A DNA stretch of 46,234 nt from a virus (lineage: Duplodnaviria; Heunggongvirae; Uroviricota; Caudoviricetes), in IMG/VR virus record IMGVR_UViG_2718218309_000006. One strand, 5' to 3'. How positions within the stretch are numbered: the first letter of the stretch is position 1; the number at the start of each line of letters is the position of its first letter. This document shows positions 5,631 through 44,816 of the stretch, in pieces. A program made the translations under genes and the position numbers. The notes under the pieces were generated by a model. It made no database searches. It saw nothing but the letters and a program-made list of their open reading frames with translations, and was not told the origin of the DNA.

Positions 5631-8600
5631 TCAACGAATACTGATGCCGGAAGCGGCTTTTTTGGTCACAATCACCGTACAGTCGGTGATATTGCCTGCC
5701 CCCTGATTGCCTTTCTGGAAAATCTTAAACTCCAGAGTGACGCTTCCCCTGCCACTCGGCATATCAATAACTGCACTGTAACTACCGGGAATGGCCCCTT
5801 TAGTTTCTCTGGATGCGATTAATACGCCGTTTTTGCGAACTTCAAAACCATAACCCGTGTATCGCGTGCCTCCTGGGTTATTTCCGCTCCCCGGATCGTC
5901 ATACGCTATACCGTTAAAAATAATGGGCGGAATAATAATCTGGCGGTCAAAGTTATGATCATCGCTGATGGTGACTGTAACCGTACCGTTTGGTGTTTCC
6001 GTGTTACCCCACGTACCGACTTTTTTCGGGAAGGCTTTTGATACAGCTTTAACGAAATCTCCTCTGACCTGGGTCGCCTCCAGCATGCCCTTAATCGTAC
6101 AGTTCTGGTTAATCGTGACATTGTTGAGCGTTCCTGAGTTCGCATTCACACTGCCACTGATATCCGCATTTTTCGCCGTCAGTCTCCCGTCTGATGTCAG
6201 GGAAAATGCCGGAGGATTACCGCCGCTGGTAATGGTGGGGGCCGTCAGGCGTTTCAGGAACACTTCATTCATGAATATCTGATCGCCCTGACCAACAAAC
6301 ATCGGCTTTGTGTTGCCATTCGCAGGATTAATCATCGCAATCCTGTCTGCTGCCAGCAGCACCTGACTCTGCATGCCGTCAGGGGTGTTCTCAATACCGG
6401 CACCGATACCCGCAATATAAAGGCGTCCGTCCTGCATCTGCTGCAGCTTCACTGCCCACATGCTGTTCAGGTTATTATTTGTATCAACCTGAACCTTCTG
6501 TATCTGCTGGATCGCTGCACTCTGGTCTTCCAGTTTCTTATTGACGGTCTGTGTTATTTCATTGCTGACATCCGTTATGGACGTCCTGATTTCAGTCAGG
6601 TCAGGCGCAAGCTGACCGTTATCAATCTGCGTCCACAGCTCCTGAGCCAGATGGGTTTTCCCTATCTCGCCTTTGAAAAAATCCAGATAGCCTGATGCAT
6701 CATCACTCGGCTGACCGACAGCCTCCACGAATGCCGATTTGCCAACGGTGTTCACACTGCGAACGTAAAAATAATAATCATGGCCCGGTTTGATATTGAT
6801 ACTGGCGGCTATCCAGTACAGTGCCGTACCAAGATAACGCGCGCTGGTTTCAACCTGCCTGATATCCGCAATCCGCTTTTCCGAGAACCAGAACTCAAAC
6901 TGTACCGTCGGATCATAAACCGCAAGATGCGGCGTGGCGGTTATCTGAAAATACCCCGGTGTCAGCTCAATCTGCGACGGCGCTGCCGGTGCGGCAATCC
7001 GGAACGATACCGATGCCGGATCGCCCTGCTGCCCCCACGCATTTACTGCCCGGACTGTCAGCCTGTAGTTCCCCAGCGCCAGTTGTGTGAAGCGGTATGT
7101 GGTTTCCGCCGTCCGGGCTGTGCTGACCAGCCGCTCACTGCCGTCATCCGCTGCCACGGTCAGGCGAAGCATAAAGCTCACCCCCTTCACCACCTTCGGC
7201 GTGTCCCAGCGGGCCAGTACCTGATATTCCCCGCTGTCTGCGGTGACTTCGGCAGTCAGGTGCTGCACCGCTGGCGGCGTGACACCATTCACCGTGCCGC
7301 TCTGGTCGCCGTCAAAGTGCGCCCCGTTATCCACGATGGCCTCTTTTTCCGGTACATGCTGCACGGCGGTGATGGCATACATACCGTCGTCGTTCTCACG
7401 GATACTCACGCAGCGGAACAGGCGCTGGCGCAGCGTCGGCAGCTTCAGCCCCCACACGCTGTATCCGGCAACGCCGTCAGGAACACGGCTCACTTTTACC
7501 TTCACGCCGTCGGTGACGGACTGGACCTCCACGCTGACCGGATTACCCTGACCGTCAACCAGGCTTATCAGCGTGGTACCGGAGGATGGCAGCGTGATTT
7601 CACGGTCGAGCGTCAGCGTCCGGGTCTGGCTGTTCACCGCCAGCACGCGCCCGCCGGTGCTGATACCCGCATAGTCATCATCGCAGATTTCAATGACATC
7701 CCCCGGTACATGGCGAAGCCCTTCCGCACCCACGCTGAAGTCCACGGTCTGCGTTTCCAGCAGTTCCGTTTTAATCAGCCACAGCCCGGCGCGGTGCGCC
7801 TGCCCCCGGCTGGTACAGCCAAAGGCATCCATCTTCGTGACGTTACGACCGTAACGGGCAATGGCCTGCGTATCTTCAACAAGCTCTGTCGCCGTCTCCC
7901 AGCCGTTATCCGGGTCAATCCAGTTCACCTCAACGGCATTATGGCGGTCTTTCAGGGCGCTGAAACTGTAGCGGAACGGCGCGCCATCATCCGGCATCAC
8001 CACATTACTGCGGTTATAGGCCCACACCTTATCCGACGGTCGGTCCTGCACGAACGTCAGCGTCTGCCCGTTCCATACCGGCATACAGCGCATCGCCGAG
8101 CAGAAATCACTGAGCACATCCCACGCCTTGCGCTGTGTGGTCAGGTACGCATTACAGGTGATGCGCGGCTCCGTGCCGCCAAAGCCGTCCGGCACTGACT
8201 GGTCGCAGTACTGGCCGATGACATACAGCGCCCATTTGTCCACATCCGCCGCACCAAGACGTTTTCCCATGCCGTAGCGCGGGTGGGTCAGCATATCCCA
8301 CAGACACCAGGCCATGTTGTTGCTGTATGCTGGTTTTAACGTTCCGTCCCAGATACCACTGTATTGCCGCGTCTGCGGGTTATAGTTCGACGGCACCTGC
8401 AGAATGCGCCCGCGAAGATGATAATTACGGCTCACCTGCTGGCTGCCGAACTGCTCCGAGTCCACCTGCACGCCGACCAGTGCCGTGTTCGGGTAGCCCT
8501 GTTTCACATCGATGATTTCGGTGTATGACGACCAGAGCGTTTTGTTCTGCAGCTGGTCTGTGGTGCTGTCCGGCGTCATCCTGCGCATCCGGATATTAAA

Positions 8601-20214: not shown

Positions 20215-23895
<3,681 letters not shown>

Positions 23896-23921
<26 letters not shown>

Positions 23922-28341: not shown

Positions 28342-29424
28342 ATGAAAAAATTAACAGTGGCAATTTCTGCTGTAGCTGCATCAGTACTGATGGCGATGTC
28401 TGCTCAGGCAGCTGAAATTTATAATAAAGACAGTAACAAGCTGGATCTGTACGGGAAAGTTAATGCTAAGCACTACTTCTCCTCTAATGATGCAGATGAT
28501 GGTGATACTACTTATGCCCGTCTTGGCTTCAAAGGTGAAACCCAAATCAACGATCAACTGACTGGTTTCGGTCAGTGGGAATATGAATTCAAAGGCAACC
28601 GCGCTGAATCTCAAGGTTCCTCCAAAGACAAAACCCGTCTTGCATTTGCAGGCCTGAAATTCGGTGACTACGGCTCAATCGATTACGGCCGTAACTACGG
28701 TGTAGCATACGACATCGGTGCGTGGACTGACGTTCTGCCAGAATTCGGTGGCGATACCTGGACCCAAACAGATGTATTCATGACTGGTCGCACCACAGGT
28801 GTTGCAACTTATCGTAACAACGACTTCTTTGGTCTGGTTGATGGCCTGAACTTTGCAGCTCAGTATCAGGGCAAAAATGACCGAAATGAAGTAACTGAAG
28901 CTAATGGCGATGGTTTCGGTTTCTCAACTACTTATGAGTATGAAGGATTCGGCGTGGGTGCAACCTATGCTAAATCTGATCGCACTAATAATCAGGTTAT
29001 CTACGGTAACAACGGTCTGAATGCTTCTGGTCAAAATGCTGAAGTATGGGCAGCTGGTCTGAAATATGATGCGAACAACATCTATCTGGCCACCACCTAT
29101 TCTGAAACCCAGAACATGACTGTTTTTGGTAATAACCATATTGCCAACAAAGCACAAAACTTCGAAGCTGTTGCACAATATCAGTTCGACTTCGGCCTGC
29201 GTCCATCCGTTGCTTACCTGCATTCTAAAGGAAAAGACTTGGGTGTTTGGGGTGATCAGGACCTGGTTGAATATGTTGATGTAGGTGCAACCTATTACTT
29301 CAACAAAAATATGTCCACTTTTGTTGACTACAAAATCAACCTGATTGATAAGAGCGATTTCACGAAAGCATCTGGCGTTGCTACCGATGATATCGTTGCT
29401 GTAGGTATGGTTTACCAGTTCTAA
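28342..29424 (+). CDS. Outer membrane porin, OmpC/OmpF/PhoE family (Lc/NmpC-like phage-borne porin)
   Basis: 360 aa, signal peptide [23 protein letters not shown] then [17 protein letters not shown] and C-terminal ...VAVGMVYQF; opposite strand to the flanking Q and lysis genes. Confidence 0.92.
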
Positions 29425-34386: not shown

Positions 34387-34641
34387 GGTGACACCTGCTA
34401 AAGTATGCTTTTATAAACCTTAGTGGTGAGATATGATTTTTGTTTAATTTTTATTTAAAAAGACAATTAAGGTCACATTATCTTAAATATACAACAATAA
34501 TCGTATTGCAATTTTCTTACACCATAATCCTGAAAGCACAAAAGAATGAATAAAAACTAAAGACATTAACAAAAAGCATAAAACGAGGCCCATATAAATA
34601 TACGAACCTCCATATTTTAGTCGTTTAAAAACAAATTATTT

Positions 34642-34974
34642 TTAATGTGGTGTGCTTCGTGACAATAAATTAATAACCAACACACCGGCACAAATCAACA
34701 TCATGCCTATAATGGCTGGCAGGTCCAACCGTTGGCCGAAAAATCCCCATGATAGTAAGCTAATCAGGACAATACCGACTCCTGACCAGATAGCATAAGC
34801 AATCCCTGTAGGAATATAAGCCAGCGTCTGAGCTAATAACCAGAATGATGCACAATAACAAATAATTGTACCAACAGATGGCCATAACCGTGTAAAACCT
34901 TCTGAAAACTTCATTAAGGTTGTACCAATGACCTCTGCAAGTATTGCACCACCAAGATAAATATAAGGATTCAT
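34642..34974 (-). CDS. emrE: Small multidrug resistance efflux transporter EmrE (SMR family)
   Basis: 110 aa from MNPYIYLGGAILAEVIGTTLMKFSEGFTRLWPSVGTIICYCASFWLLAQTLAYIPTGIAYAIWSGVGIV; four TM helices. Confidence 0.92.
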   Translation of the reverse strand: MNPYIYLGGAILAEVIGTTLMKFSEGFTRLWPSVGTIICYCASFWLLAQTLAYIPTGIAYAIWSGVGIVLISLLSWGFFGQRLDLPAIIGMMLICAGVLVINLLSRSTPH

Positions 34975-34989
34975 AGCATATTCTTTCCT

Positions 34990-35024
34990 GTTCAAACTGG
35001 AGAGAATTGTACTACAGTTTGAAC
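34990..35024. repeat. Perfect 10-bp inverted repeat (GTTCAAACTG / CAGTTTGAAC, 15-bp spacer) between ren and emrE
   Basis: Read directly from the sequence, just upstream of the emrE start. Confidence 0.6.
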
Positions 35025-41967: not shown

Positions 41968-42065
41968 ACATGAAAAGCAAAATCATCAGGGAGCTACAGG
42001 CTCCTTTTTTATTATTCGCATTCACCCTCAAGCGTATTAACCAACAATTCAGGGATTAATGGAAG

Positions 42066-42287
42066 ATGGCAGACATCATTGATTCAGCATCAGAAATTGA
42101 AGAATTACAGCGCAACACAGCAATAAAAATGCGCCGCCTGAACCACCAGGCTATATCTGCCACTCATTGTTGTGAGTGTGGCGATCCGATAGATGAACGA
42201 AGACGCCTGGTCGTTCAGGGTTGTCGGACTTGTGCAAGTTGCCAGGAGGATCTGGAGCTTATCAGTAAACAGAGAGGTTCGAAGTGA
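42066..42287 (+). CDS. TraR/DksA-family C4 zinc-finger protein (lambda orf73-like)
   Basis: 73 aa, C-x2-C...C-x2-C motif (CCECGDPIDERRRLVVQGCRTCASCQ). Confidence 0.8.
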   Translation: MADIIDSASEIEELQRNTAIKMRRLNHQAISATHCCECGDPIDERRRLVVQGCRTCASCQEDLELISKQRGSK

Positions 42288-42439
42288 GCGAAATTAACTA
42301 GAAGCCAAAGATAAAATCATCGCTGAGCAGGAGAAAATCGCTAACGGAGAAAAGACAGTAAGTCAGTATATGAAAACCGCATGATATCATCAGATAAAAA
42401 TCGGTCGTAAAGCGAAATATTAATACCAGAACAAACGAG

Positions 42440-42463
42440 TCGAGGTAAATTATATTACCTCGA
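42440..42463. terminator. Hairpin between convergent orf73 and the membrane-protein gene (TCGAGGTAA-attata-TTACCTCGA)
   Basis: 9-bp perfect stem with A/T-rich flanks. Confidence 0.4.
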
Positions 42464-42497
42464 TAAATTAACTAAAACTTGCCCGCTATATACTATA

Positions 42498-43100
42498 TCA
42501 TTCAGTATCATCACGCGCGGTCTGTGCATATGTCACTACCGCACCTAATATATTAATTTTCTTTTCAACATAGATAATATTATCGTACTCATAATTGCCA
42601 TACGGATAGCAAATGCGAATATTCTCATGTAGTTCGGGGTCATCCACCTCAGCTCCAGAACAACTTTTTGAACTACCGGAAGTATACCGATACGGTGCAA
42701 CATAAGACGATGTCTCTCCAGGCAAAAAATAAGTTAGTGTCGTAAGGGGTATAATCAGAAAAAATCCAGCAAATATGCACATCCCTGCATAAACCTTAAG
42801 GTATGCTGACAGACTCTTCCAGCCTCTTTGTTTTACTATCCCCTTCTTAACCCAAAACAGAGATAACAGAAAAGCTATTCCCATGCTAAACAGAATGTAA
42901 TAGTGGGATATACTCTGATTAAGAAACGTGACCCTGTAGATATCTGCCCGCCACCAGAAGAAAAGGAAAATAAAGATCAGCCCTGAAACTGTCATGCAAA
43001 TCAAATAAGGATACGAATCTTTTTTCATGTTTAGCGCCCATAAAATTTTTCCTGACCCGGACAAATTTACCATCCATTTTTTGCGCAGAAAATAGCTCAT
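42498..43100 (-). CDS. Hypothetical polytopic membrane protein (about 3 TM helices plus Cys-containing C-terminal domain); AT-rich moron
   Basis: 200 aa; hydrophobic segments YPYLICMTVSGLIFIFLFFWW, YYILFSMGIAFLLSLFWV, VYAGMCIFAGFFLIIPLTTLTYFL; opposite orientation to flanking genes; start codon uncertain. Confidence 0.55.
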   Translation of the reverse strand: MSYFLRKKWMVNLSGSGKILWALNMKKDSYPYLICMTVSGLIFIFLFFWWRADIYRVTFLNQSISHYYILFSMGIAFLLSLFWVKKGIVKQRGWKSLSAYLKVYAGMCIFAGFFLIIPLTTLTYFLPGETSSYVAPYRYTSGSSKSCSGAEVDDPELHENIRICYPYGNYEYDNIIYVEKKINILGAVVTYAQTARDDTE

Positions 43101-43549
43101 TACTTACTGCACAATAATACACAAAATTGCGTAAATTTTTTGCATGGATTTTAGCTCTTTCAGCCGAAATTTAAGGGGTAAATAGCATTTCCTAAAAGCA
43201 ACTGCACCAACCCAACAGAATGGGCTACCGCTTACGTTGAGAGCAAAAAAGTGTATAGCAGCAATGAACAGCATCCTCGCACTGACGAGGATTTCTTTTA
43301 TCTGAACTCGCTACGGCGGGTTTTGTTTTATGGAGATGATAAATGCACTTCCGAGTCACAGGTGAATGGAATGGAGAACCATTCAACAGAGTTATCGAAG
43401 CCGAGAACATCAGCGACTGCTATGACCACTGGATGCTGTGGGCGCAGATAGCACATGCAGACGTAACCAATATTCGAATTGAAGAACTGAAAGAACACCA
43501 AGCCGCCTGATGGCGGTTTTTTCTTGCGTGTAATTGCGGAGACTTTGCG

Positions 43550-43768
43550 ATGTACTTGACACTTCAGGAGTGGAACGCACGCCAGCGACGCCCAAGAAGC
43601 CTTGAAACAGTTCGTCGATGGGTACGCGAGTGCAGGATATTCCCTCCTCCGGTTAAGGATGGAAGAGAGTATCTGTTCCACGAATCAGCGGTAAAGGTTG
43701 ACTTAAATCGACCAGTAACAGGTAGCCTTTTGAAGAGGATCAGAAATGGGAAGAAGGCGAAGTCATGA
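43550..43768 (+). CDS. xis: Excisionase Xis
   Basis: 72 aa, MYLTLQEWNARQRRPRSLETVRRWVRECRIFPPPVKDGREYLFHESAVKVDLNRP... Confidence 0.95.
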   Translation: MYLTLQEWNARQRRPRSLETVRRWVRECRIFPPPVKDGREYLFHESAVKVDLNRPVTGSLLKRIRNGKKAKS

Positions 43769-44816
43769 GCGCCGGGATTTACCCCCTAACCTTTATATAA
43801 GAAACAATGGATATTACTGCTACAGGGACCCAAGGACGGGTAAAGAGTTTGGATTAGGCAGAGACAGGCGAATCGCAATCACTGAAGCCATACAGGCCAA
43901 CATTGAGTTATTTTCAGGACACAAACACAAGCCTCTGACAGCGAGAATCAACAGTGATAATTCCGTTACGTTACATTCATGGCTTGATCGCTACGAAAAA
44001 ATCCTGGCCAGCAGAGGAATCAAGCAGAAGACACTCATAAATTACATGAGCAAAATTAAAGCAATAAGGAGGGGTCTGCCTGATGCTCCACTTGAAGACA
44101 TCACCACAAAAGAAATTGCGGCAATGCTCAATGGATACATAGACGAGGGCAAGGCGGCGTCAGCCAAGTTAATCAGATCAACACTGAGCGATGCATTCCG
44201 AGAGGCAATAGCTGAAGGCCATATAACAACAAACCCTGTCGCTGCCACTCGCGCAGCAAAATCAGAGGTAAGGAGATCAAGACTTACGGCTGACGAATAC
44301 CTGAAAATTTATCAAGCAGCAGAATCATCACCATGTTGGCTCAGACTTGCAATGGAACTGGCTGTTGTTACCGGGCAACGAGTTGGTGATTTATGCGAAA
44401 TGAAGTGGTCTGATATCGTAGATGGATATCTTTATGTCGAGCAAAGCAAAACAGGCGTAAAAATTGCCATCCCAACAGCATTGCATGTTGATGCTCTCGG
44501 AATATCAATGAAGGAAACACTTGATAAATGCAAAGAGATTCTTGGCGGAGAAACCATAATTGCATCTACTCGTCGCGAACCGCTTTCATCCGGCACAGTA
44601 TCAAGGTATTTTATGCGCGCACGAAAAGCATCAGGTCTTTCCTTCGAAGGGGATCCGCCTACCTTTCACGAGTTGCGCAGTTTGTCTGCAAGACTCTATG
44701 AGAAGCAGATAAGCGATAAGTTTGCTCAACATCTTCTCGGGCATAAGTCGGACACCATGGCATCACAGTATCGTGATGACAGAGGCAGGGAGTGGGACAA
44801 AATTGAAATCAAATAA
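43746..44816 (+). CDS. int: Integrase Int (tyrosine recombinase, lambda type)
   Basis: 356 aa, MGRRRSHERRDLPPNLYIRNNGYYCYRDPRTGKEFGLGRDRRIAITEAIQANIELFSGHK... Confidence 0.95.
   Translation: MGRRRSHERRDLPPNLYIRNNGYYCYRDPRTGKEFGLGRDRRIAITEAIQANIELFSGHKHKPLTARINSDNSVTLHSWLDRYEKILASRGIKQKTLINYMSKIKAIRRGLPDAPLEDITTKEIAAMLNGYIDEGKAASAKLIRSTLSDAFREAIAEGHITTNPVAATRAAKSEVRRSRLTADEYLKIYQAAESSPCWLRLAMELAVVTGQRVGDLCEMKWSDIVDGYLYVEQSKTGVKIAIPTALHVDALGISMKETLDKCKEILGGETIIASTRREPLSSGTVSRYFMRARKASGLSFEGDPPTFHELRSLSARLYEKQISDKFAQHLLGHKSDTMASQYRDDRGREWDKIEIK

Follow-up and report, generated by a model that had tools for sequence, protein, structure and literature searches.

A reverse-oriented cassette beside xis in a lambda-like prophage encodes a predicted three-helix inner-membrane protein with a possible role in superinfection exclusion

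What does an AT-rich gene, turned against its neighbors and lodged beside the excision and integration genes of a lambda-like prophage, do for its carrier? The question is raised by a stretch of caudoviral DNA of 46,234 nucleotides (nt; IMG/VR record IMGVR_UViG_2718218309_000006), hereafter the window, which has a minus-strand open reading frame (ORF) for a membrane protein between a TraR-like gene and xis. An earlier note on this DNA had proposed a horizontally acquired gene and, as its function, phage exclusion or membrane-acting abortive infection. The reading that we favor, tentatively, is that the gene specifies an inner-membrane protein expressed in the lysogen, whose conserved periplasmic beta-barrel would block an envelope-level (genome-entry) step of superinfection. 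It is favored because an independent antisense cassette occupies the cargo slots of two unrelated types of temperate phages, one of these slots being an established defense hotspot, and because the size of the protein and its number of transmembrane (TM) segments match those of SieA from phage P22 and the constraint on its sequence centers on the periplasmic module. The gene, its coding constraint, the boundaries of its cassette, its distribution and the predicted architecture of its product were computed here; expression in the lysogen and exclusion are inferred.

The gene and its start codon

As the earlier note had seen, the ORF is AT-rich. Its guanine plus cytosine (GC) content is 0.39 vs 0.508 for the window, and sliding-window values stay at 0.35-0.40 over 42350-43249, with 0.46-0.54 on both sides. 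One explanation of such a locus is that it holds no functional gene at all, only the remnant of a gene in decay or an ORF that arose by chance in AT-rich filler. This would agree with the 'frameshifted' flags that the PGAP annotation sets on some copies borne by P2-like prophages, and with the truncated calls of 112-128 amino acids (aa) that are common in databases. Nevertheless, the ratio of nonsynonymous to synonymous substitution rates (dN/dS, Nei-Gojobori) is close to 0.1 (0.12 and 0.10 vs two P2-borne copies), homologues at 37-79% identity are found in six genera, an intact copy is present in about 961 complete Escherichia coli genomes, and one of the frameshift calls, examined below, is artefactual, the 176-aa ORF of that copy being intact. 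The conservation and the selection signal effectively refute the remnant or chance ORF, to which we give hardly any credence. The gene is real and under purifying selection, which is strongest in the predicted periplasmic domain: dN/dS is 0.07-0.08 in this C-terminal domain and 0.11-0.15 in the TM part. Conservation, expressed as mean majority frequency, is likewise highest in the C-terminal domain (0.75), followed by the N-terminus, the first TM segment and the first periplasmic loop, and it is lowest (0.47-0.52) in the second TM segment, the cytoplasmic loop and the third TM segment.

The ORF listing of the window gives the gene an ATG start and 200 aa (42498..43100, minus strand). On one flank lies a plus-strand ORF of 73 aa for a TraR/DksA zinc-finger protein (42066-42287; Pfam zf-dskA_traR, E 1.6e-8); the neighbors on the 5' side, also on the plus strand, are ORF55 (43343-43510), xis (43550-43768) and int (43746-44816), followed by the host gene ybhC. 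However, the start of the gene probably has to be moved. In an alignment of 20 family members, all the sequences that are not lambda-like begin at the methionine equivalent to M25 of the 200-aa model (MKKxSYPxL), and at nine loci an in-frame stop lies 2-19 codons upstream of the M25-equivalent ATG, with no alternative start between. The predicted extended -10 element (43072..43064) is downstream of ATG 43100 and overlaps ATG 43073, and a transcript beginning at about 43057 could use only ATG 43028, so that the true coding sequence most likely is 42498..43028 (minus strand, stop included), which starts at ATG 43028 and encodes 176 aa (MKKDSYPYL...ARDDTE). Two residue numberings result, M25 of the 200-aa model being M1 of the 176-aa model. 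The 200-aa model is probably over-extended at its 5' end, and the 72 nt by which it exceeds the shorter one (43029..43100, minus strand), which stop codons close in the P2-borne copies, are probably an untranslated leader with the core promoter. The ORF, strand and flanks given in the earlier note thus stand, whereas its length of 200 aa does not agree with the starts of the homologues and the stops upstream of them. The AT-rich upstream region that it had singled out (43101-43250) does have a low GC content, and part of it, together with the first 72 nt of the ORF, is better described as promoter and leader.

The annotated start varies even among near-identical copies, which are given 188 aa in phage 434 and 200 aa by PGAP. 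In E. coli ST69 (L118 2594-3169, NZ_CP102488.1), PGAP labels the P2-borne copy a 'frameshifted' pseudogene. That copy has no indel relative to an intact copy, its 176-aa ORF is open and its stops are confined to the N-terminal extension; the call would be an annotation artefact that arises because the reference model is over-long at the N-terminus. This matters for annotation, since the excess length of the 200-aa model leads PGAP to mark at least one P2-borne copy as a frameshifted pseudogene although it is intact. Immediately upstream, a 56-aa ORF (43104..43274, minus strand) is annotated in phage 434 as a 'putative membrane protein' (CPT_434_35) and is absent from the PGAP annotation. Neither Pfam nor PHROG has a match for this ORF, which extends over the promoter region and shares only its 3' third with the conserved cassette, and it is probably no gene.

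Predicted architecture of the protein

Hydropathy marks three hydrophobic segments (30-50, 66-84 and 102-126 in the 200-aa numbering), and an AlphaFold2 (AF2) model built on a 19-sequence alignment (predicted local distance difference test, pLDDT, 84.2) has three long helices, then a five-stranded beta domain; for this architecture of helices and beta domain, pLDDT values of 84 and 89 are given. The roughly three TM helices of the earlier note are borne out by both predictions. In the 176-aa numbering, TM1 covers residues 6-26 (42951..43013, minus strand, as are all the parts of the protein given here) and is contained in an AF2 helix spanning residues 5-33. TM2 (residues 42-60, 42849..42905) was placed by hydropathy, AF2 and the alignment, and comes after a conserved short loop, IYRxTFLN, predicted to be periplasmic. 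TM3 (residues 78-102, 42723..42797; hydropathy and AF2) is preceded by a basic loop, KKGIVKQRGWK, with five K/R, which is predicted to be cytoplasmic. The remaining C-terminal domain of about 74 aa (42501..42722) is predicted to be a small five-stranded beta-barrel in the periplasm. It is acidic (12 D/E vs 6 K/R, net -6) and bears the motifs CSGA and ICYPxGxY. The earlier note had also remarked on a Cys-containing soluble domain at this end, and two of its cysteines, C123 and C140, indeed prove to be invariant across the family. The positive-inside rule applied to the five K/R between TM2 and TM3, the acidic C-terminal domain and the two invariant cysteines together predict an N-in, C-out topology with the C-terminal domain in the periplasm, where we infer that the cysteine pair forms a disulfide. 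Two other membrane-protein classes were considered and set aside. A lipoprotein N-terminus was rejected since YLIC is unfit as a lipobox and its cysteine is not conserved; a holin was rejected because the gene lies outside the lysis cassette and a topology with a 74-aa periplasmic domain would be unlike that of class I holins.

The statement of the earlier note that no family could be recognized holds for Pfam, NCBIfam and PADLOC. Pfam has no match above the gathering threshold, the best being DUF6057 at E 0.18, far under the cut-off, and NCBIfam has no match. A profile of unknown function, PHROG 1416, is hit with E 1.2e-50, though only by residues 113-200 of the 200-aa model on its 90 positions, and it seems to have been built from truncated gene calls. 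Sequence searches of the PDB with full-length and C-terminal-domain profiles gave chance-level matches only, Foldseek against BFVD gave nothing at E < 0.01, and the structure search with the full-length model returned generic helical matches, with no confident fold relative. Rfam has no RNA family in 42000-43800. A profile match (E 6e-8) to a repetitive protein of 3074 aa without informative domains was treated as spurious. The family is small (in a set of 1.84 billion proteins, it makes up 61 clusters at the 50% identity level) and is so far known only as hypothetical or '3 TM' entries. As to topology, the C-terminal domain is predicted to have the same five-stranded small barrel as the OB/cold-shock-like beta-barrels of Bacillus DUF1093 (3npp) and YhhM/DUF2500 (3q6c), and the PDB entry of YhhM calls it a probable receptor.

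This architecture bears on the abortive-infection effector that the earlier note had suggested. The single gene would then be sensor and effector at once, sensing a phage at the envelope and permeabilizing or depolarizing the inner membrane, which would kill or arrest the cell. Transmembrane effectors are common in known defense systems (PMC9122126), a bundle of three helices could oligomerize into a pore, and the gene occurs as a single unit in defense hotspots. Yet the protein has no cytoplasmic sensing domain, its short cytoplasmic loop being the least conserved part; conservation is lower in the TM helices than in the periplasmic domain; and neither a consistently adjacent partner gene nor a match to a PADLOC effector model was found. 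It seems unlikely that the protein is such an effector.

A mobile cassette and its carriers

The gene is part of a cassette (42408..43165, minus strand) made up of promoter region, ORF and terminator, which blastn aligns at 76.5% nucleotide identity over 761 nt with a P2-like prophage of E. coli (L013). The terminator (42440..42463, minus strand) is an intrinsic one, a hairpin with a 9-bp stem and a T-rich tail, and lies within the segment common to the P2-borne copy. At the other end, alignment of the upstream DNA reveals a predicted extended -10 element, TG(G/A)TAA(A/T/G)TT, conserved in the lambda-like, the P2-like and the Cedecea chromosomal copies; in the window it reads TGgTAAATT (43064..43072, minus strand; TG at 43072-43071, hexamer at 43069..43064) and transcription would start near 43057. 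The locus has its own terminator, a GC content different from that of its flanks and a presence/absence pattern among related phages, as in the Hendrix/Juhala definition of a moron. Judged from sequence, these features support a moron, that is, a horizontally acquired and independent transcription unit in the exo-xis region. The horizontal acquisition and the expression apart from the early operon that the earlier note had proposed are supported by the conserved, predicted promoter element, the terminator and the recurrence of the cassette at 76% nucleotide identity in P2-like prophages.

The surroundings of the cassette fit this picture. Its 3' end is flanked by a remnant of an Ea22-like (ead) gene (42298..42341, plus strand), as the comparison with lambda's ea22/ea8.5 slot in the earlier note would lead one to expect. 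This remnant is a 44-nt match to an annotated Ea22-like pseudogene beside the copy in the P2 hotspot (L024 3526-3896; L118 3272-3643). The P2 copy would thus carry a scrap of lambda-like exo-xis DNA, which indicates that a lambda-like exo-xis fragment moved into P2-like phages. Between the cassette and ORF55 stand two tandem plus-strand terminators, at 43273-43292 (tL4 of phage 434, annotated in M60848) and 43304-43323, and terminator-like sites are enriched in 42250-43560, with seven found vs 0.9 expected.

Three direct repeats with a 10-bp period (TTACGCA, TTGTGTA and TTGTGCA; 43108..43134, minus strand) are centered at about -54 to -74 from the presumed transcription start. Such (A)TTGTGCA repeats are kept between the lambda-like and the P2-like copies, about 40-65 nt upstream of the conserved -10, and they are sharper in the P2-borne ones, where ATTGTGCA occurs three times in L005 (about 5940-5975) and the repeats of L013 lie at about 5935-5970. 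The heptamer is not enriched in the window. The repeats may be an activator site. If they were a cII-type site, TTGT-N6-TTGT, the gene would serve in the establishment of lysogeny, its expression being transient and accompanying that of int and cI, and not constitutive in the lysogen. The geometry is like that of the pRE and pI promoters. A TTGY-N6-TTGY match does lie at 43111-43124, where the record of phage 434 (OL657226) annotates a cII consensus. Nevertheless, about 5-6 such matches are calculated to occur by chance in 46 kb, and the best -10 lies 3 nt farther away than in a cII-type promoter. In the near-identical prophage of E. coli 55989, genes for an S24 repressor and a cro-like regulator accompany a YdaT-domain module, and no lambda cII is annotated; the repeats are kept, and are even sharper, in P2-like prophages. 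P2-like phages are not known to have a cII. On account of the P2-borne conservation and of the 55989 regulatory module, the cII-type site and the transient expression that it implies were judged improbable, and a host activator is at least as likely as cII.

The lambda-like copies are very similar to each other. A 1051-bp region at this locus is 100% identical in E. coli 55989, in O104:H4 and in many further strains, and its identity to phages mEp332, 2B8 and 434 is 99.6%, 98.7% and 98.6%, respectively. At 98-100% identity and in the same slot, the gene is CPT_434_36 of phage 434 ('putative membrane protein', OL657226), WP_000120064.1 of 55989 and ECs_0804 in prophage Sp3 of O157:H7 Sakai; the genome paper of phage 434 gives no function for CPT_434_36. 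It is present in 961-980 of 5426 complete E. coli genomes (~18%). In each of the three genomes that were inspected, namely 55989, O55:H7 CB9615 and Sakai, the slot by xis and int is the same, and it lies next to ybhC at the attachment site of lambda. Of 50,697 phage records, only those of 434, mEp332 and 2B8 carry the gene, vs more than 200 records with the flanking ORF55 segment. Most of 80 IMG/VR loci are lambda-like (64), 14 are P2-like with the gene in the gpQ-gpA interval, and two lie at contig ends, in one of which the copy adjoins an integrase and an HNH protein at the edge of a prophage. The window itself is 99% colinear with the 55989 prophage over 3425-46234. By the 55989 annotation (L026), the prophage also contains DLP12-like cargo (window ~28342-29424 and 34600-35000), namely an OmpC-like porin gene, emrE, a ybcK-type serine recombinase and a Lom-family gene, and the large terminase gene, which is frameshifted in 55989, is an open 641-aa ORF in the window (21996-23921).

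Homologues outside this group are found in Salmonella, Klebsiella, Enterobacter, Citrobacter and Cedecea. Those at 51-79% identity belong to P2-like prophages of E. coli, Salmonella and Klebsiella and stand there between the portal gene gpQ and the replication gene gpA. The gpQ-gpA interval has been described as a hotspot of anti-phage genes, the old/tin locus (Rousset et al. 2022, Cell Host Microbe, PMC9122126). Table S5B of that study gives its fourth most frequent system, System #4, as having 470 occurrences, no Pfam domain and '3 TM'. BLASTP aligns the window protein with the System #4 representative at 51% identity over 168 aa (E 7e-56). The two agree in length, in their three TM helices and in the motifs CSGA and ICYPxGxY, and each is a single-gene unit in a prophage cargo slot. 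Nevertheless, the location differs: the System #4 copy is flanked by gpQ and gpA in P2-like myoviruses, and the window copy is found between the TraR-like gene and ORF55/xis in the exo-xis region of a lambda-like siphovirus, outside the gpQ-gpA interval by which System #4 is placed. In its accessible part, a 2026 follow-up describes many of the unknown genes of such hotspots as defensive and makes no mention of the window family.

Two observations on these P2-like prophages deserve to be recorded beside the above. In Klebsiella (L017-L019 2281-5623), the hotspot holds a homologue together with a 790-aa AAA_16 protein and a 279-aa protein without a Pfam domain, and the latter two may form a two-gene defense system. 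Moreover, a 112-aa call of the P2-type copy (clusters P0131 and P0133), which starts at an internal valine and leaves TM3 and the periplasmic domain, is found on at least 1000 contigs. It is far commoner than the intact 176-aa form of the same P2 subtype; the gene may really be disrupted at its 5' end, the call may mark a single-pass isoform, or gene calling may have produced it.

More distant homologues (37-45% identity) are chromosomal and, in several Enterobacter species, syntenic beside a GGDEF/HAMP protein and an AI-2E transporter; chromosomal copies also exist in Klebsiella and Cedecea. They introduce another explanation, namely lysogenic conversion of a kind other than defense. The gene would have kept a cellular envelope function of its Enterobacter, Klebsiella and Cedecea relatives, for instance as a ligand or modulator of a host factor in the periplasm or inner membrane, in stress tolerance, or in immunity against a bacteriocin or effector, and be carried for the fitness of the lysogen. 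The conserved synteny across Enterobacter and the existence of the other chromosomal copies speak for it, a periplasmic domain so strongly conserved suggests a host ligand that is itself conserved, non-defense cargo is also found in P2 hotspots, and the window prophage carries further conversion genes, such as those of the Lom-family protein and the porin. Yet the phage-borne copies lie precisely in cargo slots enriched in defense genes, and the protein matches no known envelope, immunity or virulence family. Such a conversion function is possible, but we consider it somewhat doubtful.

Proposed superinfection exclusion and known exclusion proteins

If the gene serves in superinfection exclusion, as we tentatively favor, its activity could be pictured as follows. 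The cassette sits antisense to the pL operon, and pL is repressed in the lysogen, so the gene would be driven by its own extended -10 promoter, to which the 10-bp-periodic upstream repeats might add the input of a host activator. During lytic growth, N-antiterminated transcription from pL would run antisense across the gene and silence it. The product would be a 176-aa inner-membrane protein with its N-terminus inside, three TM helices and its C-terminus outside, displaying in the periplasm the conserved short loop and a five-stranded barrel stabilized by a disulfide. This periplasmic module would bind either a conserved component of the envelope or the DNA-delivery apparatus of the incoming phage at the inner membrane, and binding there would block the genome entry of superinfecting phages. 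What supports exclusion is guilt by association, the homologues lying in the gpQ-gpA hotspot of P2, and this context strengthens the reading.

Several points weigh against this scenario. The System #4 protein is absent from the tables of tested systems (S2A and S2B of PMC9122126), and the P2 hotspot is known to hold partition systems and the cdt toxin besides defense genes (PMC9122126). PADLOC-DB v2 has no model that matches the protein at E <= 1, and the literature, searched by accession and locus tag, contains no functional study of any family member. Alignment of profiles by hhalign gave a probability of 0.2% with types A-C of P22 SieA and of 1.2% with HK97 gp15, two proteins that block phage entry at the membrane, and homology to both was rejected on these values. 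A scan for two-hexamer consensus promoters found none upstream of the gene and did not pick up the extended -10, and the promoter, the transcription start, the topology and the disulfide are all predictions. An arms race with rapidly evolving phage proteins would not be expected to leave the periplasmic domain so strongly conserved. Finally, the synteny in Enterobacter points to an ancestral cellular role of the family.

There is a more specific version of the exclusion reading, which we consider rather unlikely as it stands. The gene would be a single-protein immunity module that has escaped recognition, in which a disulfide-locked, OB-like periplasmic barrel recognizes the DNA-delivery machinery of phages or a host factor that this machinery needs; it would have been domesticated from a chromosomal Enterobacter gene and traded as a cassette between lambda-like and P2-like phages. 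In that case, about a fifth of E. coli strains, O157:H7 and O104:H4 included, could owe a broad, cross-family exclusion to the gene, and a host regulator may tune it through the 10-bp direct repeats. Exclusion in general, if true, would enlarge the small set of known inner-membrane blocks to phage genome entry by a new family of distinct structure, help to explain phage host range in pathogenic E. coli and document a direct traffic of cassettes between lambda-like and P2-like phages. The gene is, after all, carried by a classical laboratory phage, 434, and by outbreak lineages of O157:H7 and O104:H4 among the ~18% of complete E. coli genomes that have it.

The comparison with known exclusion proteins gives the favored reading its shape. 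P22 SieA is a protein of 162-164 aa with three predicted TM segments that resides in the inner membrane and blocks DNA injection (PMC10883804). Like it, the window gene is a prophage moron, with what is predicted to be its own promoter, oriented opposite to its neighbors, and both products are proteins of ~160-176 aa with three predicted TM segments in the inner membrane. They differ in their genome position, and tblastn against all phage records detects nothing in P22-like phages. A conserved periplasmic beta-barrel of ~74 aa with two invariant cysteines, as predicted for the window protein, is not known as a feature of SieA. HK97 gp15 is another small membrane protein that blocks genome entry (cited in PMC10883804), and it resembles the window protein in being encoded by a moron with its own terminator, but it has 62 aa and belongs to the tail gene cluster. 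The role proposed here would also be analogous to that of T4 Imm and Sp, although the protein family is unrelated. As for chromosomal relatives, HK97 gp15 is said, by Cumby et al., to have one as well, YebO, so that the existence of a chromosomal homologue is compatible with a role in exclusion. By analogy, the proposed mechanism, in which DNA delivery would be blocked at the inner membrane, is modeled on P22 SieA.

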